This document shows, piece by piece, positions 5,438 through 27,388 of a DNA stretch of 32,000 bases. Each line of letters starts with the position of its first letter. Position 1 is the stretch's first letter. The translations under genes were made by a program, and so were the position numbers. The DNA comes from an uncultured Sporolactobacillaceae bacterium (GTDB lineage Bacteria; Bacillota; Bacilli; Bacillales; Sporolactobacillaceae), in assembly GCA_963772845.1 (NCBI GenBank), contig CAVYYW010000027.1, forward strand, positions 39,086 to 71,085, read 5' to 3'. The notes under the pieces are model-generated. The model was not told the DNA's origin. It did no database searches and saw only the letters and a program-made list of their open reading frames with translations.

Positions 5438-6187
5438 ATGAATTTTAATGGGAAAAACGTTGTTGTGACAGGCGGGGCGTCAGGTATTGGCCTCGGCGTC
5501 TCTAAAGCTTACGCAAACGAAGGAGCACGCGTTTTTATTGCGGATATTAATTCTGAAAAAGCGGCACAGGCTGTAGAAGATATCAAATCAGCAGGTGGCC
5601 TTGCCGTCTCTATTCCCACAGATGTAAGAGACAAAGACGCGGTTGAGGCGCTTTTTTCTAGAGTGGAAGAAGAAGCAGACGGCGTGGATATTTTGATAAA
5701 TAACGCTGGTGTTTCACGGTTTAAGCCGCTTGAAGAATTGACAATCGAAGAATATGATGATGTCTTAAGCATAAATCTGCGCGGGTATTTTATCTGTGCC
5801 AAATTCGCTTCCAGTCTGATGAAGAAGAAAGGCATTCATGGTTCCATTGTGAATATGTCTTCAACTCGGTCAGTGATGTCTGAGCCAGGATCTGAAGCAT
5901 ATGCTTCCTCAAAAGGGGGCATTGCTGGATTAACGCATGCTCTGGCACTTTCTTTGAGTGATTCAAAGATAACAGTGAATGCCATCAGTCCTGGCTGGAT
6001 TGAAACAGGGGATTATGAAGCCCTGAGGGATGTTGATCATGAGCAGCATCCATCCAAGCGCGTTGGAAAGCCTGAGGATATTGCACGGGCCTGTCTGTAT
6101 CTGACAGATGAGCGAAATGATTTCGTGACGGGCGTCGATCTCATGGTGGATGGCGGGATGACCCGAAAGATGATTTACGAACACTGA
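5438..6187 (+). CDS. SDR family oxidoreductase
   Basis: TGGASGIGLG (Rossmann fold), NNAG and the YASSK catalytic motif are present. The protein is 249 aa. Confidence 0.9.
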   Translation: MNFNGKNVVVTGGASGIGLGVSKAYANEGARVFIADINSEKAAQAVEDIKSAGGLAVSIPTDVRDKDAVEALFSRVEEEADGVDILINNAGVSRFKPLEELTIEEYDDVLSINLRGYFICAKFASSLMKKKGIHGSIVNMSSTRSVMSEPGSEAYASSKGGIAGLTHALALSLSDSKITVNAISPGWIETGDYEALRDVDHEQHPSKRVGKPEDIARACLYLTDERNDFVTGVDLMVDGGMTRKMIYEH

Positions 6188-6211
6188 TAATAGGAACAAG
6201 TTATTTTATGT

Positions 6212-6257
6212 AGAGTGTCGACATGTTATCTAATGACGTGTTCGACACTCTTTTTTT
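6212..6257 (+). terminator. Rho-independent terminator of the SDR gene
   Basis: The stem is AGAGTGTCGA (6212-6221) paired with TCGACACTCT (6242-6251), followed by a T7 run. Confidence 0.8.
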
Positions 6258-6417
6258 GCCTTGGTGCCGAGCTATGGAACATTTGCGCTTGCCGCGGGCA
6301 GGCGGTGAACCTCCTGATATGAAGGAAACTGTCATGCCCCCCACTTTAACTCTGTTTTTAGGCAATTCTAAGCAAAAAACCTTTCTTGCTTCTTATTTAA
6401 TCGAGTGTTGATTTTCG

Positions 6418-6785
6418 TCAAAAGGTGAGTTGAGGGAAACCGAGGCGATTAGTGCCCTCCAAGGGTCAAAAAGGTGAGTTGAGGGAACCAACCGAGGCGA
6501 TTAGTGCCCTCCAAGGGTCAAAAAGCTGAAATTGATGGAATCCAAAGAGGCGTTGGAGGACAAAAAAGCGGCCAAAACCGAAATAAGTGGAATCCAACGA
6601 GGCGTTGGAGGACAAAAAAGCGGCAAAATCCGAAAATAGTGGAATCCAAAGAGGAGTTGGAGGACAAAAAAGCGCCCAAAACTGAAAAAGTGGAATCCAA
6701 AGAGGCGTTGGAGGACAAAAAAACGCCCAAAAGCCGAAAAAGTGGAATCAACCGAGGTGTTTGATGCCTGCCAAGCGCCAAAAAG
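6418..6785. repeat. Tandem array of about 7 units with about 52 bp period (units of 44-52 bp)
   Basis: The core unit is AAAAAAGCGSCMAAAASYGAAAWAGTGGAATCCAAMGAGGCGTTGGAGGAC. Unit starts are 6418, 6466, 6518, 6562, 6614, 6666 and 6717. Each unit carries a small hairpin (TCCAA..TTGGA or GAGGG..CCCTC) and an A6-7 tract. Confidence 0.9.
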
Positions 6786-6856
6786 CTACTTAATATCATC
6801 GTTAATGGCTTTTGATCATTTTGTTGTTCGTAACATTTTTTTTGAAAAGATTAAAA

Positions 6857-6899
6857 AAACCGCCCTGTTTAGCTGTAAAAGAGCTAAATGGGGCGGTTT
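6857..6899 (-). terminator. Strong hairpin that reads as a Rho-independent terminator on the minus strand, with no gene immediately upstream
   Basis: AAACCGCCC..TTTAGCT..AGCTAAA..GGGCGGTTT forms 9+7 bp of stem. On the minus strand it is followed by T7 (plus-strand A-run 6853-6859). Confidence 0.7.
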
Positions 6900-6953
6900 C
6901 GCTTTTAGTTTCTCCAGCTTCTGCTCTTAAGAAAGCTTCTCTTTGAAAACTTT

Positions 6954-7061
6954 GGCTCCATCAGGGCTACCCCGGCAAGCTTCACTTTTCATTGTCTAGC
7001 TATGCCGCACAGCTCCTCGGGGTCACTTCGAAAGCCCTTCAAAAATGAAAGAGCCATTTTT
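6954..7061. repeat. 108-bp direct repeat, copy 1
   Basis: It is identical base-for-base by eye to 7649-7756. A diverged third copy is at 24492-24600. Confidence 0.9.
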
Positions 7062-7221
7062 CGCCCAAATTGTCTAGCTGCGGTTGCCATTCCTTCGGAT
7101 CCTTCAATTTCCCTTCAGAGGAAAAGAGCTCCTCTTTGGAAAACCTCCAGGCTCTTTCAGGACTAATCGGGCAACCTCGCTTTTCGCTACTCCAGTCTCT
7201 GGGAAAGAAATCTGCGACCAT

Positions 7222-7529
7222 GTGCTCCTGCGTCTGCTAGACATGCTTCGAAGCGGGATTCCTCGTCGCAATTCGCAGTCGTTCGAGAGGTGATGCTTGT
7301 GCTCCTGCGTCTGCTAGACATGCTTCGAAGCGGGATTCCTCGTCGCAATTCGCAGTCGTTCGAGAGGTGATGCTTGTGCTCCTGCGTCTGCTAGACATGC
7401 TTCGAAGCGGGATTCCTCGTCGCAATTCGCAGTCGTTCGAGAGGTGATGCTTGTGCTCCTGCGTCTGCTAGACATGCTTCGAAGCGGGATTCCTCGTCGC
7501 AACTCGTAGTCGTTCGAGATGTGATGCTC
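7222..7529. repeat. Tandem array of 4 x 77 bp
   Basis: Units 7222-7298, 7299-7375 and 7376-7452 are identical. Unit 7453-7529 differs at 4 positions and matches the single copies at 26522-26598 and 24640-24724 (the latter with indels). Confidence 0.95.
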
Positions 7530-7648
7530 GTGCCTGTCGGAGCTGACATGTGCGGCTCCGCTTTTCTTTGTCTAGTTCCGCTTGCCAGCCCTTCGGTTCC
7601 TTCAACTTTCTTCGGTGGACAAAAAGCGTCCCCCTCAGAAAGTCTCCA

Positions 7649-7756
7649 GGCTCCATCAGGGCTACCCCGGCAAGCTTCACTTTTCATTGTCTAGCTATGC
7701 CGCACAGCTCCTCGGGGTCACTTCGAAAGCCCTTCAAAAATGAAAGAGCCATTTTT
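7649..7756. repeat. 108-bp direct repeat, copy 2
   Basis: It is identical to 6954-7061, at an offset of 695 bp. Confidence 0.9.
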
Positions 7757-8299
7757 TTGGTCTTCCTCCAGTGCCTGTCGGAGCTGACATGTGCGGCTTC
7801 GCTTTTCTTCTAATCCAGTGTGACTGGTTTGGTTTTTCTTTGGGCGTTTTCTTCCTCTTAGTTCGAGAACGCCATGCTGAAAGGAGGCGCGGATCTCTTC
7901 AGAAGAAACCATATATGGAAGCGTAACCGTTCTTTCAGCCTGGTGAAAGCGGCGTTCTTTATGGAAGTAATGCTGCTGGTCATTTTCAACCGTATGTTCT
8001 TGGTGGTCGGTTACTGAAATATGGACTTTGTCTCCAAAAGCTTCAACCTGGATCCGATCTCGATCAACGCCGGGAAGCTCGGCCTGAATGACCCACTCTC
8101 TGGCCGTTTCGTACATATCAATAGGAATTGAACGATTAAAGGGATACGTTTTTTGGAAAAAATTGTCCATAGAATGAAGCAGCGAAGATTTGCCGTTTCC
8201 CTTAAAGAAGCCGTTCATCTGCTCCATAATATCGTGCCCAAGAGGGAAAAAAGTTTCTTTGTTATCCGATGGTTTTTCCTTGTTGTCAGCCATCGTCAT
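7718..8299 (-). CDS. Hsp20/alpha-crystallin family protein (CotM/CotP-like). The last ~31 codons of the annotated ORF read into a repeat module, and the true stop is possibly TAG at 7810-7812.
   Basis: An alpha-crystallin-like core is present (PIDMYETAREWVIQAELPGV...GVLELR). RBS AAGGAGG lies upstream of the ATG at 8299. The C-terminal tail 7718-7812 is encoded by the shared module GTGCCTGTCGGAGCTGACATGTGCGG. Confidence 0.8.
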   Translation of the reverse strand: MTMADNKEKPSDNKETFFPLGHDIMEQMNGFFKGNGKSSLLHSMDNFFQKTYPFNRSIPIDMYETAREWVIQAELPGVDRDRIQVEAFGDKVHISVTDHQEHTVENDQQHYFHKERRFHQAERTVTLPYMVSSEEIRASFQHGVLELRGRKRPKKNQTSHTGLEEKRSRTCQLRQALEEDQKNGSFIFEGLSK

Positions 8300-11164: not shown

Positions 11165-11406
11165 AGATGGGGTAGAGGTCGCGGTTTTTAATAGTAGGGC
11201 GCTGAGACGATGGATGTCTTTGAAGCTGCCTGAAAGGATCAACCGCCGAAGTCTGGACAGGTATCCACACCTGACAGGCTGGGGCTGTTCCCAAACAGGG
11301 GCAGAACTGTCACATGGAGTATTTTTTCCATGTGTTGAGCTATCGATGGAAGGTCTGGATGGGGCTTTTTTCTGCCATCGTGTCGAGCATTCGCGATGGT
11401 TTTTTT
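11165..11406 (+). promoter_or_regulatory. Lysine riboswitch (L-box) with a terminator expression platform
   Basis: Conserved L-box blocks appear in order: AGAGGTCGCG, AGTAGGGC, GAGACGATGGAT, CTGAAAGG, CGCCGAAG, GCTGG, ACTGTCA. These are followed by a terminator stem CCATCGTG (11375-11382) / CGCGATGG (11392-11399) plus T7. An alternative pairing partner ATCGATGG sits at 11342-11349. Confidence 0.85.
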
Positions 11407-11452
11407 AATTCCCTTTTTACCTTCCATAAGTCGAATCGAAAGGAAGAGATTT

Positions 11453-12916
11453 ATGGATCAGCAGCAAAGAACAGACAGCAGTGCAGCAACAGGGACTTCT
11501 TTAAAAAGAGGGCTTAAATCACGGCATATGACGATGATCGCTTTAGGAGGCGCTATTGGCACAGGGTTATTCCTTGCAAGCGGCACCGCGATTCACTCAG
11601 CAGGACCAGGAGGCGCTTTGCTCGCCTATGGGATTATTGGCATCATGGTGTTTTTCTTAATGACAAGTCTTGGAGAACTGGCTTCTTATATGCCAACAAG
11701 CGGTTCGTTCAGTACGTACGCAACCCGGTTCATTGACCCGGCGTTAGGATTCGCTCTTGGCTGGAATTACTGGTACAACTGGGCCATCACGCTTGCAGCA
11801 GAGCTTTCTGCAGCAACGCTTGTGATGAAGTTTTGGTTCCCGCATACACCTTCTATATTATGGAGCGGAATATTTCTTCTGCTTATCTTTGGACTCAATG
11901 TATTATCTGTAAAAGGATACGGCGAGTCAGAATATTGGTTCGCTATAATTAAAGTCGCTACCGTCATCATTTTCATTATTGTTGGCTTGCTGATGCTTAT
12001 TGGCATCCTGCATGGCGAGACGAGAGGCTTCGGCAACTTTACCAGAGGCGATGCCCCTTTTCATGGCGGTCTTTTAGCGGCCTTTGGTGTTTTCCTGGCT
12101 GCGGGCTTTTCTTTTCAAGGAACAGAATTGCTAGGAGTCAGTGCCGGTGAAAGCGAGGACCCTGCTAAAAATGTTCCAAAAGCGGTACGCAGTATATTCT
12201 GGAGGATTCTATTATTCTATATTTTTGCCATTCTAATTATCGGATTAATTATTCCTTATACAAGCCCAAACCTTGCAAGCGATAATGTGCTGGTCAGCCC
12301 CTTCACTCTTGTTTTCAAGCATGCGGGTCTCGCCATTGCTGCTTCCGTGATGAACGCAGTCATTTTAACTGCCGTCTTATCCGCGGGCAATTCGGGATTA
12401 TACGCATCCACAAGAATGCTGTATGCTCTGGCGCGGGAAGGAAAGGCTCCGAAGTTTCTAGGGTTTGTTAATCAGCGCGGAATTCCAATCTATGCTTTGC
12501 TGATTACCACAGCAGTGGGGATGCTTGCGTTCTTAGCATCACTATTCGGGGATGGGGCCGTCTACATTTGGCTTCTAAATGCCTCAGGGATGTCCGGATT
12601 CATTGCATGGCTCGGGATTGCGGTCAGCCATTACCGCTTTAGAAAAGCTTATCTTCATCAGGGGCATGATCTGAAAAATCTTCCGTATCGTGCAAAATGG
12701 TTTCCGTTCGGACCGATTTTTGCTTTTCTGGTTTGTTTAGTTGTCGTTATTGGACAGAACTACCAGGCGTTTATGACAGGAGCGATCGACTGGAAAGGGA
12801 TTGTGGTTTCATATATTGGGCTCCCGCTGTTTTTAATCGTGTGGTTCAGTTATAAGTGGTCTAAAAAAACAAAACTGCTGTCCCTTGATCAATGTGATGT
12901 CACACCCCATGAATAA
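11453..12916 (+). CDS. lysP: Amino acid permease of the APC family, LysP-type lysine permease
   Basis: Strong similarity along the whole length to E. coli LysP as I recall it (LKSRHMTMIALGGAIGTGLF, SFQGTEL, NAVILTAVLSAGNSGLYASTRMLY, SHYRFR). The start at ATG 11453 follows AAGGAAG. It sits behind an L-box. Confidence 0.85.
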   Translation: MDQQQRTDSSAATGTSLKRGLKSRHMTMIALGGAIGTGLFLASGTAIHSAGPGGALLAYGIIGIMVFFLMTSLGELASYMPTSGSFSTYATRFIDPALGFALGWNYWYNWAITLAAELSAATLVMKFWFPHTPSILWSGIFLLLIFGLNVLSVKGYGESEYWFAIIKVATVIIFIIVGLLMLIGILHGETRGFGNFTRGDAPFHGGLLAAFGVFLAAGFSFQGTELLGVSAGESEDPAKNVPKAVRSIFWRILLFYIFAILIIGLIIPYTSPNLASDNVLVSPFTLVFKHAGLAIAASVMNAVILTAVLSAGNSGLYASTRMLYALAREGKAPKFLGFVNQRGIPIYALLITTAVGMLAFLASLFGDGAVYIWLLNASGMSGFIAWLGIAVSHYRFRKAYLHQGHDLKNLPYRAKWFPFGPIFAFLVCLVVVIGQNYQAFMTGAIDWKGIVVSYIGLPLFLIVWFSYKWSKKTKLLSLDQCDVTPHE

Positions 12917-13061: not shown

Positions 13062-14537
13062 GTGAGAGATGTGAAACCGGAAAAAGGAGCAACAGTAACA
13101 GATCCAAACGGATTGCAAAGGGGTCTGAAAGCACGGCATCTAACAATGATATCACTTGGAGGCGCAATCGGGACCGGTCTGTTTCTTGGGAGCGGCGCAG
13201 CCATTCATACGGCTGGTCCAGGCGGAGCGCTTACCGCATATATCATTATCGGCATCATGGTGTACTTCATTATGACGAGCTTGGGGGAGCTTGCTTCATT
13301 TATGCCTGTCAGCGGCTCCTTCAGTACGTATGCCACCCGTTTTATTGATCCGGCACTTGGCTTCGCATTAGGCTGGAATTATTGGTACAGCTGGGCAATT
13401 ACGCTTGCAGCTGAATTATCTGCATCAACGCTTGTCATGAAATTTTGGTTTCCTGACACACCCTCTCTTTTATGGAGCGGACTCTTTCTGCTAATCATAT
13501 TTCTTTTGAATTATTTATCCGTAAAAGGTTATGGAGAAGGGGAATACTGGTTTTCCTTTATCAAGGTAGCCACGATTATCATCTTTATTATCGTTGGTAT
13601 CTTAATGATTATCGGTGTGTTTAATGGAAAAGCGATAGGATTTCAGAATTTGACCGTTAAAAATGCTCCGTTTAGCGGAGGGTTTCTTGCTACTCTCAGT
13701 ATCTTCTTGGCTGCAGGCTTCTCTTTTCAAGGAACTGAAATTGTTGGGGTTGCCGCAGGAGAAAGTGAAAATCCAAGAAAAACGGTTCCAAAAGCAGTCC
13801 GAACCATCTTTTGGCGTATTCTGCTCTTTTATGTTCTCGCCATTCTTGTCATTGGCCTGATCATTCCTTACACAAACAGTTCACTGGAAAGCGACAGCAT
13901 ACTCGTGAGTCCGTTTACCTTGGTCTTTAAAAAGGCAGGTCTTGCATTTGCAGCCTCAGTCATGAACGCCGTTATCTTAACAGCGGTGCTGTCTGCCGGT
14001 AATTCAAGTCTCTATGCTTCAACCAGAATGCTCTATGCAATGGCGAAAGACGGCCAGGCTCCTAAATTTCTTGCAAAACTTAATAAACGCGGCATACCGA
14101 TCGGAGCACTCCTTATAACAACATTTGTAGGAATGTTAGCCTTCCTGGCTTCCATCTTCGGCGACGGTGCGATTTATATCTGGTTATTAAATGCTTCAGG
14201 AGTCACAGGGTTTATTTTCTGGCTCGGTATTGCAATGAGCCATTATCGGTTCAGAAAAGCCTTCGTCGCTCAAGGGCGTTCGCTGGATGAACTGCCATAC
14301 AAAGCAAAATGGTATCCGTTCGGACCGATTTTCGCGATCGTGGTTTGTCTTATAGTCATCCTTGCACAGGATTATCAAGCCTTTTTAAACAGCCATATCG
14401 ACTGGATGAGTCTTGCTGTCGCTTATTTAGGCATTCCGCTGTTCCTTGTTATGTGGCTTGGTTATAAATTTATTAAAAAGACAAAAGTCGTTCCGCTTCA
14501 AGAATGTGAACTTGATGCTGAAGAATATAACGACTGA
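13062..14537 (+). CDS. Amino acid permease, LysP-type paralog
   Basis: It is roughly three-quarters identical by eye to 11453-12916. GTG at 13071 has better spacing to GAGGAG than GTG at 13062. Confidence 0.85.
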   Translation: MRDVKPEKGATVTDPNGLQRGLKARHLTMISLGGAIGTGLFLGSGAAIHTAGPGGALTAYIIIGIMVYFIMTSLGELASFMPVSGSFSTYATRFIDPALGFALGWNYWYSWAITLAAELSASTLVMKFWFPDTPSLLWSGLFLLIIFLLNYLSVKGYGEGEYWFSFIKVATIIIFIIVGILMIIGVFNGKAIGFQNLTVKNAPFSGGFLATLSIFLAAGFSFQGTEIVGVAAGESENPRKTVPKAVRTIFWRILLFYVLAILVIGLIIPYTNSSLESDSILVSPFTLVFKKAGLAFAASVMNAVILTAVLSAGNSSLYASTRMLYAMAKDGQAPKFLAKLNKRGIPIGALLITTFVGMLAFLASIFGDGAIYIWLLNASGVTGFIFWLGIAMSHYRFRKAFVAQGRSLDELPYKAKWYPFGPIFAIVVCLIVILAQDYQAFLNSHIDWMSLAVAYLGIPLFLVMWLGYKFIKKTKVVPLQECELDAEEYND

Positions 14538-14628: not shown

Positions 14629-15546
14629 ATGAAAGTCTTTGAAGAAGAGGAGCGGATGTTCATCATGGCACAGCAAAAGATTATCGGTTTCGCAGGCACA
14701 GGTGTGATGGGTCAGGGAATGGTCAGGAATCTGCTTGGAGCAGGTTACCGGGTCAATGTTTTTAATCGCACAAAACAAAAGGCTCTGCCATTAATTGAAG
14801 AAGGCGCTTCATGGTTTGATACGGTAAAAGGCCTTGCTTCACATTCGGATATTATCATCACTATGCTTGGTTATCCTGAGGATGTGGAATCCGTTTATTT
14901 TGATAACGGGGTTCTTGACCATGCGAAAGAAGGCACGGTTTTAATCGATATGACCACATCTTCGCCACAATTAGCCGCAAAAATTAGTAAACACGCAAAG
15001 GAAAAAGGTCTTGCCGCTCTGGATGCACCCGTGTCGGGAGGCGATATCGGGGCTAAAAACGGTACGCTCTCTATCATGGCAGGCGGAGACGAAACGATTT
15101 TTGAAGACGTGCTTCCCGTCCTTGAAACAATGGGGAAAGAAGTGGTTTATCAGGGCAAGGCAGGCTCTGGCCAGCATACGAAAATGTGTAACCAGATCAC
15201 AATTGCATCGAATATGATGGGAGTCTGTGAATCTCTGTTGTATGCCAAAAAAGCGGGCCTTGATGAGAAAACGGTGCTGAGAAGCATTACAGGCGGCGCA
15301 GCTGGAAGCTGGTCATTAACAAATCTGGCACCAAGAATTCTGGATGAGGATTTTGCTCCCGGGTTCTATGTAAAGCATTTCATCAAAGACATGAAAATCG
15401 CTTTTGAGTCAGCAAAGGAAATGGGGATGAAGGCTCCCGGGCTCGAACTAAGCCTCTCGCTTTATGAAGAGCTTGCTGAAATGGGCCAGGAAAACGCAGG
15501 CACGCAAGCGCTTTATGAACTTTACGAAAAGAAAATGCAAAGCTGA
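14629..15546 (+). CDS. NAD(P)-dependent beta-hydroxyacid dehydrogenase family (3-hydroxyisobutyrate dehydrogenase-like)
   Basis: GFAGTGVMGQGMVRNL Rossmann motif and DAPVSGG are present. The true start is probably ATG 14656 or 14665. Confidence 0.85.
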   Translation: MKVFEEEERMFIMAQQKIIGFAGTGVMGQGMVRNLLGAGYRVNVFNRTKQKALPLIEEGASWFDTVKGLASHSDIIITMLGYPEDVESVYFDNGVLDHAKEGTVLIDMTTSSPQLAAKISKHAKEKGLAALDAPVSGGDIGAKNGTLSIMAGGDETIFEDVLPVLETMGKEVVYQGKAGSGQHTKMCNQITIASNMMGVCESLLYAKKAGLDEKTVLRSITGGAAGSWSLTNLAPRILDEDFAPGFYVKHFIKDMKIAFESAKEMGMKAPGLELSLSLYEELAEMGQENAGTQALYELYEKKMQS

Positions 15547-15563
15547 TTTTTGGCAAGAAACAG

Positions 15564-15592
15564 GCTGTCGAGACATCTCGACAGCTTGTTTT
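15564..15592 (+). terminator. Rho-independent terminator
   Basis: GCTGTCGAG..CTCGACAGC followed by TTGTTTT. Confidence 0.8.
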
Positions 15593-15700
15593 GCTCTATA
15601 AAATTTTAAGTAGTCCCTGCGGGGTGTTCTTGGAACGCTGATGAGGCCACTGAAAGAGACCACCTTTTTTGATGTGTTTGTTGATTTCCGCTCTAGACTG

Positions 15701-15952
15701 CTCGCTTTCCACGGGCACGGCCTCAGCTAACTTTGGCGTGGGCTCTTTGTGCCAAAGTGGATCTTCGAGCGCGTGCTGCTTCCGTAGGACTTGAAACAGC
15801 CTCCTTGAATCCACACCGCACGAAGAAAATGCGTTTGCTTTAGATTGAAAGCTGAAATACCCTCGCTTTCCACGGGCACGGCCTCAGCTAACTTTGGCGT
15901 GGTCTCCTTGTTTGCCAAAGTGGATCTTCGGACGCGTGCTGTTTCCGTAGGA
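15701..15952. repeat. Two direct copies (161-bp period) of a ~90-nt imperfectly palindromic module
   Basis: Copies are at 15701-15789 and 15862-15952 (CTCGCTTTCCACGGGCACGGCCTCAGCTAACTTTGGC..GCCAAAGTGGATCTTCG..CGTGCTG.TTCCGTAGGA). An inverted copy is at 26242-26332. The central hairpin is CTTTGGC/GCCAAAG. Confidence 0.9.
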
Positions 15953-16225
15953 GTCTCGGGTATTTCTAGCTTTCAATCTGCATGCGCATTTCGAGGAGTC
16001 ATGGATATTTCTGGCTTTCAATTGTAGGCATGCATATTTTCGAGGAGTTTCGGGTATTTCTGGCTTTCTCTAGGCATGCGCATTTTCGAGGAGTCTCGGG
16101 TATTTGCTTTCAAAGCATGCAATTTTCGAGCGCATTGCTGCATTTTCGAGGAGTCTCGGGTATTTCTAGCTTTCAACTCAGGGCATGCGTATTTTCGAGG
16201 AGTCTCGCGTCTTCCGCTTCAATCA
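15951..16225. repeat. Tandem array of 6 units with 45-60 bp period
   Basis: The unit is GAGTCTCGGGTATTTCTAGCTTTCAA..GCATGC..ATTTTCGAG. Unit starts are 15951, 15996, 16045, 16091, 16151 and 16200. Confidence 0.9.
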
Positions 16226-16498
16226 ACGTCATGTGATGTCCTTTAGAAGTCAATTATTGCTACGCATGCCTTCAGGATGTGAATAGGTTCGCCGGTGGCA
16301 CAGGACGTGACAAATTTAGCCAAACTTTCTACATAATTTTGCGCTGCCTTTAGAATTCCAGGGGACTTTGCGTTATTCTTTGATTAAATCTTAAAAAAGA
16401 TCAATAATATAGAAGTTTTTCAGTTGCCTCAGTCTGATCCCGCAGATGTCTCACCCTTCAGATAAATTGGCCCAAAAATGCAATAATCAGCCCGAAGA

Positions 16499-16547
16499 AC
16501 AAAAAAGCGTGCCACACAATTCTCTTTTGAGAATGTGTCGGCACGCT
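16499..16547 (-). terminator. Strong hairpin that reads as a minus-strand Rho-independent terminator inside island B
   Basis: AGCGTGCC.ACACA.TTCTC / GAGAATGTGT.GGCACGCT forms a ~18-bp imperfect stem. On the minus strand it is followed by T6 (plus-strand A-run 16501-16506). Confidence 0.7.
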
Positions 16548-16732
16548 GCTTTAAAAAGACTTTTTTTGGCATCTCGCTGATTGCGCTGAAATTGAAATAA
16601 CACCTTTTGGAACCACACCGACAGAACGCTGTATTGGCAAAGGCAGTCAAAAAGAGAGTGAAATGTCCTTAATGAGAGGGAGGAAGACGTTCGTCGGGGC
16701 AAATGCGCATCCCTATTGATGAAAGCTAAAAA

Positions 16733-16884
16733 CTCGAAACTCCTTGAAAAAGCACATGCTCACTGAAAGGCAGGAATACCTGAGACTTCTCGAAAATGCT
16801 TTGTGCTCCATTATAAAAATGGAAATACTTGAGACTCCTCGAAATTGCCCGTGCTTATTGAAAGCAAGAAATACCCGAGACTCC
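16733..16884. repeat. Three units of the 15951-16225 array in inverted orientation
   Basis: Units 16733-16789, 16790-16838 and 16839-16884 end in GAAATACCCGAGACTCC, the reverse complement of GGAGTCTCGGGTATTTC. Confidence 0.85.
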
Positions 16885-17100
16885 TGCAAGAATCAGCGTT
16901 CCAAGCGAGACCCCACAGCCACAATGTCTTATGTGAGGAGGCTCGCGGAACGCCTGCGGAAAGCGAGGGTATTTCCGCTTTCAATTATGACATCGCATTT
17001 TCTTCGTGCGAAATCACAAAAATCGGAATTTTCTAGTGTCAGTTTCGCTATTTTAGTTGTTTACAAGTATTTATTAAGCGTTATTCGGCCATTTTTTTGC

Positions 17101-18668
17101 TTATATCGTGTAGCCTCCGAGCATAAGCGTCACAAATAGCGTGTCAATAATGATAAAGTACACAATCTCAGGCAGCATCTCCCAGTACTCTGTTCTAACA
17201 AAACGTGTGATCAGACCTGAAACCAGCGCTGCTGCTACGGCGATCAGATAAGGACTGCCGGTGAAAGTTCAAATAAAAAGGCAGTTCTGATGGGATGAGC
17301 TTTGGTATGAGAAAATCGTACAGGTAGATGAACTGCGAAATGAAAAAGATAATATAAGTGCCCCATCGGACAAAGGGGGCGCCATTTTCGACAGCTGTCG
17401 TCTTTGCAAAATAGCAAATGAAATAAAAGAGCAAGGCAATGAGCGAATAAATTAGTGCAAAGAACACTGCAAAAATATTAACCGACAGTATGATCAGGGC
17501 ATTTGAGATGGCCTGGCCGATATCATGCTGAGTCGCTTTGATACTTTTGGCAATCGCCTTGGCGTTCGTACTTGCGGCATAAAGTTGATAATGATTTGCT
17601 TTTTGATAACCAAGCCAGATAATCAAGTTATTGCTCAATTCCTTTGGCTTGATCGACTGGTTATTCGTACTGTGACGTTCAGCAAGAGCCGTCCCATTAT
17701 TATTGAGAATTGCAGAATAGACGACCTGTCCGTCATGATGAAATGACAGGGTACCTTGTGATGCGAACGTAATCTTATCCTTGCCGTTGATGACCGTGTA
17801 GCTAAGATCATTTAATTCCTGGATAGGTTCATGACCATCGGCTGTGTAGACATCAAAATGATGTTCGGACCATTCCGGTTTTCCGGCTGCAATCGCATGA
17901 GCGCTGACATCGGACATCATGTAAGTGGTTGTAATCGTGCTGCTGTAAGTCGTCTTTGAATATAACAAATGCACAGAATTTGGCGTCACAGAAAACATAA
18001 AACCGCTGTATCGTGCAGAGGGATTATTAAACGTGTGAAGCAGTGAATGCGGATACTGCTTGCCGTCTTTTTTAAAGTAAATAACTTTAGTTTCTTTATC
18101 CTTGTTTAACGTTGCAATGAAATCCTGACTGTTCGCACTGGTGACAAGTTCTGATACTGGAAGATTAAAAGATCCAAGGGTCTTAATATCTCCCAGTAGC
18201 AGGGTCAGCTTCTTTCACGATCGGCCCTGAAGAATAAATAATGTGGTCATTGTCTGCGGGCATAAGCTGTGCAGCATGTGAATCAAGTATTTTGGTATGA
18301 CCCTTCGTATACTCAGTGAGCTTGCCGTTTTTTATGTAAATTAACGTGCTTCCTTTAGCCCAGATGCCATCATTGTCCGGGTGAACAGGGTAGGTATGGT
18401 TGGTCAAAATATCCATGGAAGGGGAGACCTCGACTTCAGAGATTCCCTTCTTCGTTACGGCATAAATGGCGGTATTGCTCCCGCGTTTCTGTGTGAAAAG
18501 CTTTGCTGAATCCGTCATGTCCTTCATTGGAAGGGGAATGGAGCGGCTCCAGTTCTTCGAAGGCGGGGTTTCTAAATTGTTCAGTTGCTTTAATGTAAAC
18601 AAACCGAAAATGATAATCAGCACAATCAGGGGTAAAAACCATACGGAAATTTTTCTGAATAGATTCAT
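17101..18668 (-). pseudogene. Membrane protein of unknown function (N-terminal TM, extracytoplasmic domain, C-terminal multi-TM region), split over three frames
   Basis: ORF 18183-18668 continues in another frame as GDIKTLGSFNLPVSELVTSANSQ..., joining ORF 17195-17998. After ~17268 a third frame continues TFTGSPYLIAVAAALVSGLITRFV...GGYTI* to the stop at 17101-17103. The candidate shift sites are CCC 18192-18194 and TT 17268-17269. Confidence 0.7.
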
Positions 18669-23744: not shown

Positions 23745-24122
23745 ATGGGTAAACTATTTGTAATCATTGGAGCAGCCTGTGCACTGTTATCCGTAGCCTT
23801 CGGTGCTTTCGGGGCACACGGCTTAAAAAATAAGCTATCCGCACATTATATGGAAATTTTTCAAACTGGCGTTCATTACCAAATGATGCATGCATTAGGA
23901 CTGATTCTTGTAGGCATTTTGGCAGCAACATGGCTGAATAATGGTTCGGCGCTTCTCAACTGGGCAGGCTGGCTGATGTTTTTCGGCATTATTCTTTTCT
24001 CAGGAAGTTTATACATATTAAGCTTGACGCAGGTTTCTGTACTTGGCGCGATTACACCGATCGGCGGTGTTGCATTTCTCGTCAGCTGGCTCTTAATTAT
24101 CATTGCATTTGTTCGTGCCTGA
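23745..24122 (+). CDS. DUF423 membrane protein (YwdK-like)
   Basis: The protein is 125 aa with 4 TM segments and the motif GAFGAHGL. It is adjacent to gerQ, as in B. subtilis. Confidence 0.8.
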   Translation: MGKLFVIIGAACALLSVAFGAFGAHGLKNKLSAHYMEIFQTGVHYQMMHALGLILVGILAATWLNNGSALLNWAGWLMFFGIILFSGSLYILSLTQVSVLGAITPIGGVAFLVSWLLIIIAFVRA

Positions 24123-24147
24123 CCCTTTAGGGGCCAGGCATTTTTTC
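24117..24147 (+). terminator. Rho-independent terminator
   Basis: GCCTG.CCC..GGG..CAGGC followed by T6. Confidence 0.75.
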
Positions 24148-24187
24148 TTATCAGAAAAGGGGCGAGGAGATCGGAACGATTTTAGTG

Positions 24188-24219
24188 CAAAAATAAAAAG
24201 CCGCATTTTCATGGGCTTT
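24188..24219 (-). terminator. Candidate minus-strand terminator 542 nt beyond the gerQ stop
   Basis: AAAGCC (24197-24202) pairs with GGCTTT (24214-24219). On the minus strand it is followed by TTTTTATTTT. Confidence 0.5.
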
Positions 24220-24763
24220 ATTGGATGGTCATGCTATTTAATTTATCTGAGGAGGGAAAGGAATTCTCTCTGAAAACCCTACCGGCTATTTCATGGTTAT
24301 TCAGGCAAGCACCAGATTGAGCTATTCTTGGATTAAATCTTAAAAAAGGCAAATAAATACAGAAGTTTTTCAGTGATGTGTAGGAGCTAACAAGTGCGGC
24401 TCTTTTCTTTGTCTAGTTACGCTTGCCAGCCCTTCGGTTCCTTCAACTTTCTTTACAGAGAACAAAAAGCGTTCTCTTCAGAAAGTCTCCAGGCTCCTTC
24501 AGGGCTATTCAGGCAAGCTTCACTTTTCTTTGTCTAGTTCCGCCGCACAGCTCCTCGGGGTCACTTCGAAAGCCCTTCAAAAATGAAAAAGCCATTTTTT
24601 GGTCTTCCTCCATTTTCCGGGAAAGAAATCTGGAACCATGTGCTCCTGCCAGTCTGCTAGTCATGCTTCGAAGCGATTGGATTCCTCGTCGCAACTCAAG
24701 TAGTACGTTCGAGAAGTGATGCTCGTGCCTGTCGGAGCTGATATGTGCGGCTTCACTTTTCTA
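24220..24763. repeat. Repeat island C, with the same module order and orientation as the right part of island A and the end of island D
   Basis: It holds the 108-bp block homolog (24492-24600), the 77-nt unit homolog (24640-24724), and the terminal module (24725-24763) ending on the gerQ stop codon. Confidence 0.9.
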
Positions 24764-25420
24764 GGCATATGGGTAGGAGTAATTAATCGGGCCTTTGAAG
24801 GTGATATAGTCTACATAAATAAGCGGGATTAGGTAGCGTGTTCCTTGAGGGCCGCCGTCGTTAATAATCACGTGATCGCGTCCAGCTGCTTCAACTTCTC
24901 CCTTAAACACTTTAGCGTTCCATTCAGAGTTGTTTTCAAATGTACAGTAAACAGTGGCGACTTTTTCAAGATTGAGTCTTAAAATGTTCTCTATATAAGA
25001 TTGCTGGTTGGCAGGCAGTGGTAAAGATCCAGGAGGTGGCATCATTTGACCGCCTTGCCCTTGCATTGGCTGACCTGGCTGTTGCATCATTTGGCCGCCT
25101 TGCATTTGCATTGGCTGACCTGGCTGCTGCATCATTTGACCGCCTTGCATTTGCCCACCAGGCATCATTGGGTAGCCACCCATCATTTGCTGAGGTTGCA
25201 TTCCTTGACCTTGTTGCCGAAAATCCGGATAACCGCCAAAATCTTGAGGCATATATGGTATGCCGCCTTGCATTCCTCCCATTTGTGGATCCATTCCGTA
25301 CTGTGACATCGGATACTGATAGCCATCTGACGGTGAACCTTGGGAAGTCCCTCCTTGCTGGGACTGCTGCCGCTCTTCGGATTGCCACCCATCCTGTGGA
25401 TTTTGTCTTTGCTCACTCAT
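24761..25420 (-). CDS. gerQ: Spore coat protein GerQ (YwdL)
   Basis: The C-terminal domain SYIENILRLN..KVATVYCTFENNSEWNAKVFKGEVEAAGRDHVIIND matches B. subtilis GerQ as I recall it. The N-terminus is Q/G/M/P-rich. It neighbours the ywdK-like gene. Confidence 0.85.
   Translation of the reverse strand: MSEQRQNPQDGWQSEERQQSQQGGTSQGSPSDGYQYPMSQYGMDPQMGGMQGGIPYMPQDFGGYPDFRQQGQGMQPQQMMGGYPMMPGGQMQGGQMMQQPGQPMQMQGGQMMQQPGQPMQGQGGQMMPPPGSLPLPANQQSYIENILRLNLEKVATVYCTFENNSEWNAKVFKGEVEAAGRDHVIINDGGPQGTRYLIPLIYVDYITFKGPINYSYPYA
25040..25160. repeat. In-frame 45-bp tandem repeat inside gerQ (about 2.7 units)
   Basis: It encodes GGQMMQQPGQPMQ(M/G)Q repeats. Units are 25040-25084 and 25085-25129, then a partial unit. 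Confidence 0.85.
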
Positions 25421-25659
25421 GGAAATTCACTCCAATCCAATTGATAATGTCGACTTCCCGACTCTCAGATCATGTATATGTTTCAAGCCAGGCTTTTAAT
25501 ACAAAAAACACTTTGAAAGTCTGCCGATTAACGATGACAGGGCCTTCAAAGCGATGATTATAAAGTATTAATTATTAAGATACCGATTGTCGAGTTTGTT
25601 TTAACATCGGAGGATCCTGCTGAAAAAGTTTCTTTTTCGCTTCGAGCCGAGCATTAGAA

Positions 25660-26641
25660 AGTTATCACTTGCCGTGGGGCGGAACGAGAGCCATGCTTTA
25701 ATTAAATGCGGCGCTGCAGGGTGGCATTTGGAGCCCAGCAAGAGCCGAAAACCTGAATTGAGGGCATTATAAGTTGCCGTTGGAGCCCATTGTGCCTCTG
25801 TAACTCGAAAGGATGGCCGTAAAGGAAGCGTTTAGGACCGTCTGAGACATGAAAACTCGAATAAATGGCCGTAAAGGTAGCGTTTAGGACCAACCAAGAT
25901 TCCCATTACCAACTAAATGCCGAACTGCCGGGAATGTTCGAGATTCCTCGAAAATGCTTTTTGTTTCATTACAAAAAAGAAATACCCAAGGTTCTCTTGA
26001 CCTCAAGGTATTTCCACTTTCTCATAGATTGCTTTGCCATTTTCATCGTGCGATGTGGTTCCAAAGACGTTATTCAAGTCCTGCGGAATCAGCGATCCAA
26101 GCGAGACCCCGCAGCGCAAACGTTGCCTTAAAGCGCGAGGAGGCTCGCGGATCGCCCGCGGAAAGCGAGGGTATTTCCGCTTTCAATGGATGGAAACCGC
26201 ATTTTCTTCGTGCGGTGTGAATTCAAGGATGCTGTTTCAAGTCCTACGGAACCAGCACGCGTCCGAAGATCCACTTTGGCGTACAAAGAGACCATGCCAA
26301 AGTTAGCTGAGGGCGTGCCCGTGGAAAGCGAGCAGCCTAGAGCGGCAATCAACAACCACGACGACACCGGGGGACTTTTTCAGCCGACTTTGTCGGAGCT
26401 CCACGTGCGGCTCCGCTTTTCTTTGTCTAGTTACGCTTGCCAGCCCTTCGGTTCCTTCAGAGCTAATCAGGCAAGCTCGCTTTTCGCGACTCCAGTGCTT
26501 GGGAAAGAAGTCTGTAACCATGTGCTCCTGCGTCTGCTAGTCATGCTTCGAAGCGGGATTCCTCGTCGCAACTCGTAGTCGTTCGAGATGTGATGCTCGT
26601 GCCTGTCGGAGCTGACATGTGCGACTTCGCTTTTCTTGCTA
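25660..26641. repeat. Repeat island D, which joins both module families
   Basis: 25660-25905 is a degenerate ~52-nt periodic stretch. 25940-26390 carries island-B-type modules (inverted relative to the left part of B). 26391-26641 carries island-A/C-type modules and ends on the hemQ stop codon. Confidence 0.85.
25973..26014 (-). terminator. Candidate minus-strand terminator 625 nt beyond the hemQ stop
   Basis: GAAATACC (25979-25986) pairs with GGTATTTC (26007-26014). On the minus strand it is followed by T6 (plus-strand A-run 25973-25978). The arms themselves resemble repeat-family sequence. Confidence 0.5.
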
Positions 26642-27388
26642 CTCTACGCTGAGCATTTGTGAGAAGCGCTGCGGGTCAAGGAGGACACCAGTGTAAAAGG
26701 AGCCGAATTCTCCGTACTGTGCACTGACTCTGTCAAAGCGCATTTCATATACTAGTTTCTTAAACTGAAGGACATCCTCAGAAAATAGCGTAACGCCCCA
26801 TTCCCAGTCATCAAGCCCAACCGATCCGGTGATGACCTGTTTCACTTTGCCTGCATAGCTTCGCCCAATCATGCCATGGCTTCGCATCATTTCACGGCGT
26901 TCATCCATTGACAGCATGTACCAGTTGTCATCACCATCCCGGCGCTTGTCCATCGGATAGAAAGAAGCGTATTTGGTTCTCGGCAAAATGGGCTTCAATC
27001 TAGCCTGGATGCGTGGATCCTCTGAAGGATCACTGTCTTTAGGTGCCATATAATTGCTAAGCTCAACAACGGAAACATAAGAGTAAGCAGGAATCGTAAA
27101 CGCTGCTAGCCTTGTTTTATTAAACGCTGTTTCGATATCATTAAGCTCTGCCATTGTCGGTCTCAGCCACATCAGCATAAAGTCTGCTTTTTGTCCCACG
27201 ATGGAGTAAAAGGCATAGCTGCCCTGTTTTTGCTGCATGACGGTATCCCATTTATCAAGGAAAGCATTGAATTCCTGAATCGCTGCCTCACGCTCGTCGC
27301 TCGAGACGTTTTTCCATGAAATCCAATCAATTGTCCGGAAATCGTGCAGACAGTACCATCCGTCCAGTGTTTTTGCTGCTTCAATCAT
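26639..27388 (-). CDS. hemQ: Coproheme decarboxylase HemQ/ChdC (chlorite dismutase family, YwfI)
   Basis: The protein is 249 aa with motifs [14 protein letters not shown] and [10 protein letters not shown]. It lies divergent from pta, as in B. subtilis. Confidence 0.9.

Follow-up and report, generated by a model that had tools for sequence, protein, structure and literature searches.

Four intergenic regions in a 32,000-nucleotide (nt) stretch of DNA from an uncultured Sporolactobacillaceae bacterium (hereafter the window; positions 39086-71085 of contig C27 in assembly GCA_963772845.1) are composed mostly of short repeat modules, and one group of these modules, named X77, T47, Q93 and P89, always lies antisense to the gene whose stop codon it touches. 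The explanation that we favour, to which we give about an even chance, is that such elements insert in an orientation-specific manner beside terminator hairpins, and that the long 3' untranslated regions (3' UTRs) of the affected genes are a by-product rather than a designed function. The regions are island A (~6190-7810, between an SDR-family gene on the plus strand and hsp20 on the minus strand), island B (15547-17100, between a plus-strand dehydrogenase gene and a frameshifted minus-strand gene for a membrane protein), island C (24123-24760, between a plus-strand DUF423 gene and gerQ on the minus strand) and island D (25421-26638, with the gerQ start on one side and the stop of hemQ, also on the minus strand, on the other). 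The assembly comprises 3.85 Mb in 42 contigs (~42% GC), and BLAST of the islands against it found their parts in 20 to ~300 copies. Masking of all 16-mers seen at least four times revealed ~830 repeat islands genome-wide, which occupy 188 kb (~4.9% of the genome) and are almost all intergenic.

The modules are joined into composites, of which the X77/T47/Q93/P89 group forms 75 genome-wide. On its own strand, which is the plus strand in the window, a composite reads leader, (X77)n, T47, Q93, P89, T47, and T47, Q93 and P89 each terminate in a hairpin followed by a T-run. The tail end either starts with TTGTCTAG or consists of the leader and the X77 array, and the head end is a T47 module (GTGCCTGTC, hairpin, CTTTTCT). 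Internal junctions take the form hairpin-CTTTTCTT/TGTCTAG, also written ...GCTTTTCTT/TGTCTAG..., where the slash marks the junction. The polarity of the group was determined from the composite ends, because counts of orientation relative to the nearest gene are confounded by the position of a module inside its composite in convergent regions. The head lay no more than ~30 nt from the stop codon of the facing gene, with no terminator in the gap, in 15 of the 18 multi-module composites that face a 3' end, whereas in none of the 28 composites that follow a co-oriented gene did the tail come within 30 nt of that gene's stop (minimum 45 nt). This polarity of 15:0 across the genome (binomial p=6e-5) means that the group is always antisense to the gene whose stop it touches.

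The strand bias is real but narrow, being shown by the X77/T47/Q93/P89 group only. The sequence-only reading had placed all modules of certain types in one orientation relative to the transcribed gene; in the window this holds for X77, T47, Q93 and P89, which are all on the plus strand beside four genes on the minus strand, and B-type modules occur there in both orientations. A universal strand rule was rejected, as the numbers of co- and anti-oriented copies in tandem intergenic regions reveal no preference for X77 (12/14), T47 (8/12), Q93 (15/9) and P89 (16/8). When all repeat families are taken together, a terminator precedes the repeat at 199 genes, the repeats come first at 67, and no terminator is predicted at 177; at only 57 genes does a repeat begin no more than 30 nt past the stop with no terminator in between.

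The junction with the stop codon consists of the stop, 0-4 nt and GAAAAGCG(hairpin). The stop at head junctions is TAG in 7/13 cases, compared with 14% TAG usage genome-wide (p=0.001). For the 15 genes with adjoining heads, the next terminator in the sense direction is 81-1153 nt away, and in 7/15 none is predicted before the next gene. A host terminator was found within 130 nt of the tail end in 11/44 composites of this genome, against 1/44 for the head end. The T47 module itself scores as a terminator on its own strand, with a GC-rich hairpin and T-run at both 7538-7560 (d=14.5) and 26394-26415 (d=7.3), where d is the score of a d'Aubenton-Carafa-type terminator scan that was run on all four islands. 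In this genome, 36 G.T and 1 A.C were counted among the inner pairs of T47, so its stem pairs better on the strand antisense to the adjoining gene.

The same scan bears on where the minus-strand genes of the window would end their transcripts. The sequence-only reading had claimed that nothing but repeat modules separates the stops of hsp20, gerQ, hemQ and the membrane-protein gene from distal hairpins with T-runs, and no minus-strand terminator was detected in any of these four intervals, nor anywhere in 6900-7810 of island A; the intervals are filled mostly by multi-copy repeat DNA. The distal hairpins themselves fared unequally. Those of hsp20 (6860-6896, d=25.5 on the minus strand and 3.4 on the plus strand) and of the membrane-protein gene (16507-16546, minus strand, d=34.1) are strong, the former being the first canonical terminator downstream of hsp20 and probably its displaced original. 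Those assigned to gerQ (24200-24216, minus strand, d=3.9) and hemQ (26014-25979, d=2.8) are weak, and the latter sits inside a repeat. A somewhat better candidate for the end of the hemQ transcript, 1086 nt past the stop of that gene, is the minus-strand terminator at 25553-25509 (d=6.3), which lies a short way upstream of the gerQ promoter region. It was also proposed that the plus-strand genes beside islands A, B and C have a terminator right at the stop and ahead of the repeats, which was borne out: the SDR gene by a hairpin (dG -21.2) followed by TTTTTTT at 6213-6250 (d=26), the dehydrogenase gene at 15561-15588 (d=14.7) and the DUF423 gene at 24116-24140 (d=29.3), all on the plus strand. 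It is a reasonable inference from this arrangement that the affected genes carry long, repeat-filled 3' UTRs.

The position of the hsp20 stop required closer reading. As assembled, the hsp20 open reading frame (ORF; 7718-8299, minus strand, Pfam HSP20) encodes 193 aa, and its translation enters the repeat by ~30 codons before it ends at the in-frame stop TGA 7718-7720. The stop named earlier, TAG at 7810, is thus out of frame in the assembly, although it is biologically plausible with a shift of 1 nt. Orthologues of hsp20 end in ...RGPKYPKTxxTLDIE*, and a 1-nt shift in the window yields ...RGRKRPKKTKPVTLD* followed by TAG 7810-7812. This TAG is probably the native hsp20 stop, displaced from its frame by a homopolymer sequencing error or by a real frameshift, and a protein ending there loses the last two ancestral residues. 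Likewise, the membrane-protein stop placed at 17101 is reached only with a frameshift, since the gene is split into two ORFs as assembled. The apparent single-base frameshifts at homopolymers in hsp20 (7810-7840) and in the membrane-protein gene (17101-18668) may be assembly errors or real pseudogenisation.

Relatives indicate where the terminators of these genes used to be. The hemQ loci of 80 named Bacillales species were fetched, and 74 of the 80 have a terminator after hemQ, at a median of 11 nt past the stop (10th-90th percentile 6-34). The hemQ stop is TAA in most of these species and TAG in the window, and in most of them gerQ lies downstream of hemQ. All five hsp20 orthologues compared have a hairpin 0-15 nt past the stop. 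An orthologue in genome G008 has a hairpin beginning AAACCGCCCC ~13 nt past the stop, which bears on the hsp20 terminator at 6860-6896, although the orthology is suggestive only. In repeat-free intergenic regions of the Sporolactobacillaceae genome, terminators begin at a median of 19-21 nt past the stop. Ancestral terminators were therefore close to the stops, and the repeats now separate genes such as hsp20 and hemQ from the usual site of their terminator.

Such a separation is found in another organism as well. In Bacillus sp. cl95, whose HemQ is 68% identical, a single element of ~195 nt with a T47-like head lies exactly between the TAA of hemQ and its terminator (NZ_FOYF01000005.1; L025 6745-6945). 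Its junctions read TAA/AGAAAAGCGGAGGCGCCATGGTCAGCCCCGACAGGCA...GCTAGACAATAA/GAGAGCTCCC...GGGAGCTTTTT, in which the head is AGAAAAGCGG and the terminator T-run is TTTTT. This appears to be an insertion independent of that in the window, at the same site. The cl95 genome contains at least 76 matches to the element, ~11 of them full-length, and in 10/10 full-length copies that were fetched the tail adjoins a host terminator hairpin, ten different terminators in all. Three of these hairpins are in the sense direction, with the element between stop and terminator, and seven are reversed, with the element just past the T-run of the terminator.

The head was then used as a motif (AAAAGYGRAG-N8-24-CYGACAGGCA) in 401 genomes sampled from the order, where it was present in 18/401 genomes and 10/133 genera, and the reversed control motif in none. 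In 8/26 distinct copies from the 17 other genomes, hemQ of cl95 among them, the stop of a 247-469-aa ORF lies 1-5 nt before the head, compared with 1.6% at random positions (p=6e-9), and no ORF does so on the opposite side. About nine of the remaining copies are internal, situated behind the tail of another module. A sense terminator follows 149-284 nt further on in 5/8 of the stop-adjoining copies. As a separate observation, a genome of the same family and a different genus (G011) has fifteen ~43-nt matches to the 3' part of X77 (e.g., C38:14426-14469), which hint at a related repeat.

A mechanism that would produce this arrangement can be outlined as follows. The islands consist of short, non-coding and non-autonomous repeat modules of one superfamily. 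An element would insert beside the hairpin of an intrinsic terminator, which its tail would face, so that on its own strand it lies just downstream of hairpin and T-run. In the common case, the hairpin and T-run would be the real terminator of the upstream gene, and the element would come to lie behind that terminator, co-oriented with the gene. Read from the opposite side, the A-tract of a gene's terminator and the stop codon may serve as the T-run and the TTA/CTA, which would place the element between stop and hairpin, antisense to the gene and with its head touching the stop. The head, being itself a hairpin with a T-run, would recreate the target, so that modules pile into arrays; this would explain both the nested arrays and the junction motif. 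Such arrays would push the terminator of the gene hundreds of nt away, and transcripts would extend across the repeats, which would form long 3' UTRs. The sequence-only reading had left an RNA-level role and an orientation-specific insertion side by side, and we prefer insertion on the strength of the ancestral hemQ terminator, the cl95 element, the contact between tail and terminator, and the polarities of 15:0 in this genome and 8:0 in the others. The transposition-like process, the self-targeting and the read-through transcription are the steps that we infer. The wider proposition, that these are undescribed mobile elements of several Bacillales genera that hunt intrinsic terminators, insert with a fixed polarity at the hairpin base (often precisely between stop codon and terminator), target themselves through the terminator mimic at their own end, and rewire the 3' ends of dozens of genes per genome with respect to UTR length, termination and antisense insulation, is more tentative, and we lean somewhat against it.

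The islands also differ between closely related sequences. The assembly contains a second haplotype or strain: the contamination estimate is 6.5%, and, besides contig C37, ~20 small contigs repeat stretches that large contigs contain as well. Contig C37 (13.9 kb) is 96% identical to positions 24725-38110 as numbered in the window, thus extending beyond its end to C27:77195. Island D is conserved between the window and C37, and the module content of island C differs. Other pairs of duplicate contigs differ by module-sized indels, such as a 120-nt unit flanked by the element-internal AAGAAAAG.

Several results weigh against insertion beside terminators. Pairs of empty and filled sites in this genome lack a clean target-site duplication; the TAA/TA at cl95 hemQ, a possible duplication, is a single case, and other copies have no consistent duplication. 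Terminal inverted repeats are absent, since the head (AGAAAAGCGG...) and the tail (...GCTAGACAA) have no inverted similarity, and the modules are not linked to a transposase or to any other gene that might mobilise them. The haplotype indels could equally stem from recombination between shared AAGAAAAG junctions, and recombination is a possible contributor in any case. Contact between tail and terminator reaches only ~25% in this genome, where islands are crowded with other families, and the corresponding signal for the B families is weak, with a terminator within 100 nt at 25% of B5 5' ends, 12% of random positions and 1% of 3' ends. Adjacency to the stop could be maintained by selection on an effect at the level of RNA or translation. 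Lastly, the gene calls (hexamer-scored) and terminator calls were made with our own scripts, which we consider crude.

The last of these biological points leads to the explanation that the repeats act as sense RNA within the 3' UTR, as a stabiliser, a processing site, an sRNA precursor or a modulator of translation termination, with selection fixing their orientation after stops. It would fit the recurrence of one orientation directly past stops in several genera, and a head sequence that is ~80% conserved between genera with HemQ only 68% identical. Comparable effects have been described: in the Bacillus cereus group, transcribed UTRs or operons include about half of the bcr repeat copies, and a longer half-life of mRNA is correlated with bcr3 (PMC3446304), while Escherichia coli repetitive extragenic palindromic (REP) elements within 15 nt of a stop stall ribosomes, according to work cited in PMC12306157. 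Nevertheless, we judge this explanation unlikely. Most repeat islands lie behind terminators (199 genes versus 67), the tandem intergenic regions have no orientation bias, and base pairing in the T47 hairpin favours the antisense strand (36 G.T to 1 A.C). RNAalifold found no conserved fold on either strand, within the families of this genome or across 19 heads from 17 genomes, and Rfam had no match to the repeats at the gathering score: its only match in the window is a lysine riboswitch at 11165-11350, and island A gave only sub-threshold chance matches. In addition, the affected genes (hsp20, gerQ, hemQ and others) are functionally unrelated, and the module content at gerQ differs between near-identical haplotypes.

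The pairing asymmetry of T47 would suit the opposite strand, on which the hairpin and T-run ends of T47, P89 and Q93 could act as antisense insulators that stop convergent or spurious antisense transcription from entering the 3' end of a gene. On that strand, the terminator scores of T47 are d=14.5 and 7.3, and the share of intergenic regions that carry repeats is 22% for convergent pairs, against 10% for tandem and 12% for divergent ones. Streptococcus pneumoniae SPRITE repeats are a precedent, as they resemble terminators and are enriched near the 3' ends of coding sequences, especially between convergent genes (PMC3049150). Yet the convergent plus-strand genes of the window already own strong terminators, many stop-adjoining cases are in tandem pairs without a convergent partner (e.g., hemQ-gerQ, both here and in cl95), and insulation would not need contact with a stop codon. 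Insulation is as doubtful as the sense-strand function; both are retained because bcr3, REP elements near stops, and BOX and SPRITE provide precedents.

Slightly less probable again is an origin without any mobility, in which arrays arise and spread by local duplication and slippage, together with ectopic recombination or gene conversion between cassettes near terminators, and the apparent polarity would reflect a few founder arrangements that were copied. The tandem arrays of 77-nt, 52-nt and 46-nt units are what such processes would leave, as are the haplotype indels flanked by the shared AAGAAAAG junction, and the lack of terminal inverted repeats and of a linked transposase is also in keeping with them. 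Local processes sit poorly with ~830 dispersed islands beside unrelated genes, with the presence of the same family at unrelated stops in eight other genomes of several genera and independently at hemQ in a distant species, or with the ten cl95 copies that all lie beside different host terminators. A chance sharing of strand and arrangement by four genes in 32 kb, which might be argued from the small number of islands, the two orientations of B-type modules and the tandem counts (12/14, 8/12, 15/9 and 16/8), is highly improbable in view of the 15:0 polarity (p=6e-5) and the 8/26 against 1.6% in other genomes (p=6e-9).

With insertion beside terminators as the preferred reading, candidate mobilisers and known families were considered. 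The genome has a single RAYT-like (REP-associated tyrosine transposase) Y1 transposase gene at C18:20821-21399 (L115 1474-2052), which matches NF047646 with 68.8 bits (the cut-off is 80). Ahead of it are three copies of a different repeat, GTGCCTGT, and the GTGCCTGT 8-mer also begins T47. RAYT was rejected as the mobiliser, and this counts against a transposition-like process: RAYT-like genes are present in 12/17 genomes with the head motif and in 224/401 (56%) overall, so that there is no association. A separate palindromic repeat family (GGTGCCTGTCAC...GTGACAGGCAC) also exists in the genome, in at least 35 copies. No member of the IS110 family was found in the genome. An origin from group II introns was dismissed, as neither the window nor island A has an Intron_gpII (RF00029) match even at E<=1 and the units are 50-260 nt long. 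The one group II intron of the genome is at C14:1437400-1439000 (L116 979-2490, minus strand; RF00029, 47.9 bits), and its reverse transcriptase (RT) is probably degenerate, the ORF stopping shortly after the RT domain. An IS200/IS605-like (PATE-like) bias for one replication strand was likewise rejected, since contig C14 has 10 composites co-oriented with the leading strand and 7 in the opposite orientation. At ~900 kb of that contig, both the GC skew and the strand bias of genes change sign, which is consistent with a replication terminus there.

Among described systems, the present modules resemble REP elements and bacterial interspersed mosaic elements (BIMEs) in being extragenic, hairpin-forming and high-copy, in forming composite arrays, and in their enrichment downstream of genes and in convergent intergenic regions. 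A considerable share of REP elements is also found no more than 15-20 nt away from a stop codon (PMC12306157). REP elements are 20-40-nt palindromes with a GTAG/CGTC tag, whereas the present modules are 47-110 nt long, are flanked by GTGCCTGTC and CTTTTCT, and, unlike REP, carry a T-run after the hairpin; nor is there a cognate RAYT that is flanked by the same repeats and co-occurs with them, as in REP/REPIN-RAYT systems. BOX and SPRITE are, like the present family, small interspersed repeats of Firmicutes, and BOX, which is co-transcribed with its neighbours, is modular in that the number of its internal units varies (PMC3049150). The terminator-like end points towards the adjoining gene in the present family and away from it in SPRITE, and the present family spans several genera; these comparisons are by description and not by sequence.

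The target rule itself is known from group IIC introns, such as B.h.I1 of Bacillus halodurans, which lie in one set orientation just downstream of an inverted repeat and the Ts that follow it (PMC1702495). The present repeats follow the same rule (10/10 in cl95; 11/44 against 1/44 in this genome), but they are only 50-260 nt long, have no ribozyme domains and encode no RT. [quoted passage not shown] The present repeats agree with MITEs in being small, non-coding, multi-copy and polymorphic for presence or absence between close relatives, and differ from them in having no terminal inverted repeats; bcr1 has a 5-bp target duplication, and the bcr repeats are set apart from the present ones by description, not by sequence. 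To our knowledge, a polarity relative to stop codons or terminators has not been described for bcr repeats. The best reading is that the elements are small interspersed repeats of the REP/BOX/SPRITE kind, in which the polarity from stop to terminator, seen across genera, is unusual.

If the insertion model is true, these repeats are a natural example of small selfish DNA that lands on terminators and separates genes from them in several Bacillales genera, and the annotated 3' ends, operon boundaries and terminator predictions of dozens of genes would be wrong. The repeats can supply C-terminal codons and stops, as in the hsp20 tail and the TAG at 7/13 junctions, and assemblies break at them (25/84 contig ends lie within 300 nt of a repeat). 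They also offer a system for the effects of long structured 3' UTRs on the fate of Gram-positive mRNA. If they are inert passengers, they would be ordinary REP/BOX/SPRITE-like clutter with an unusual polarity.

The individual islands can be read in these terms. Left of island A is the SDR gene (5438-6187, plus strand; Pfam adh_short_C2, E=1e-64), and behind its terminator two tandem arrays of 52-nt modules, V52 and U52, occupy 6420-6790 (strand not assigned; Tandem Repeats Finder (TRF) period 52; ~40-70 genomic matches). The plus-strand composite follows beyond the minus-strand terminator at 6860-6896. P-like and Q-like modules and the leader (6924-7220; repeat families D3, D9 and D11), the leader being present also at C14:729 kb and C14:1179 kb, precede an array of four X77 units (7221-7528; TRF 4.1 copies, 98% matches; 53 nhmmer matches genome-wide). 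Next are an internal T47 (7529-7575), with the 7538-7560 hairpin and CTTTTCTTT, which is terminator-like on the plus strand, and the Q93 and P89 modules (7576-7757), each with its terminal hairpin and T-run. The terminal T47 head (7758-7809, hairpin 7779-7801) adjoins the end of hsp20.

Island B carries B-type modules, whose copy numbers genome-wide are 319 for B1, 240 for B5 and 213 for B2 (nhmmer). To its left is the gene for a 3-hydroxyisobutyrate/6-phosphogluconate dehydrogenase-like protein (14629-15546, plus strand; Pfam NAD_binding_2 and NAD_binding_11). A B5-B1-B1-B2 array (15613-16260, plus strand), with up to ~300 genomic matches per position, is co-oriented with this gene, and B-type modules at 16700-17012 (minus strand; the sequence contains B2 as its reverse complement) are co-oriented with the membrane-protein gene, so that the two sets are mirror-imaged around the terminator at 16507-16546. 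The membrane-protein gene (17101-18668, minus strand) is broken by frameshifts into ORFs 17195-17998 and 18183-18668, and a third frame reaches the stop near 17101.

The DUF423 gene (23745-24122, Pfam DUF423) borders island C, in which a plus-strand composite of the T47 group (24356-24760) ends with its head at the gerQ stop (CTA 24761-24763). The gerQ gene (24761-25420, minus strand; Pfam Spore_GerQ, E=2e-34) contains, in frame, 2.6 copies of a 45-nt tandem repeat within the low-complexity sequence of its N-terminal part (25039-25154). In island D, a minus-strand B-type composite co-oriented with hemQ (25979-26385), which includes the weak hairpin and T-run noted above, is followed by a plus-strand composite of the T47 group (26385-26636; T47-like, short Q, leader, X77, T47), with its head 2 nt from the stop of hemQ. 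The latter gene (26639-27388, minus strand, TAG stop; Pfam Chlor_dismutase) belongs to the coproheme decarboxylase/chlorite dismutase family.

A block of ~55 nt (TTGATTAAATCTTAA...) is common to islands B (16365-16425) and C (24317-24375) and has 49 nhmmer matches in the genome. The TTGATTAAATCTTAA block has no orientation bias, and is a repeat module rather than a unique promoter. Outside the islands, the lysine riboswitch (RF00168, 101.8 bits; 11165-11350) lies upstream of a 506-aa ORF at 11396-12916, of which the ORF at 13062-14537 is a paralogue (a 300-nt stretch at 73% identity).

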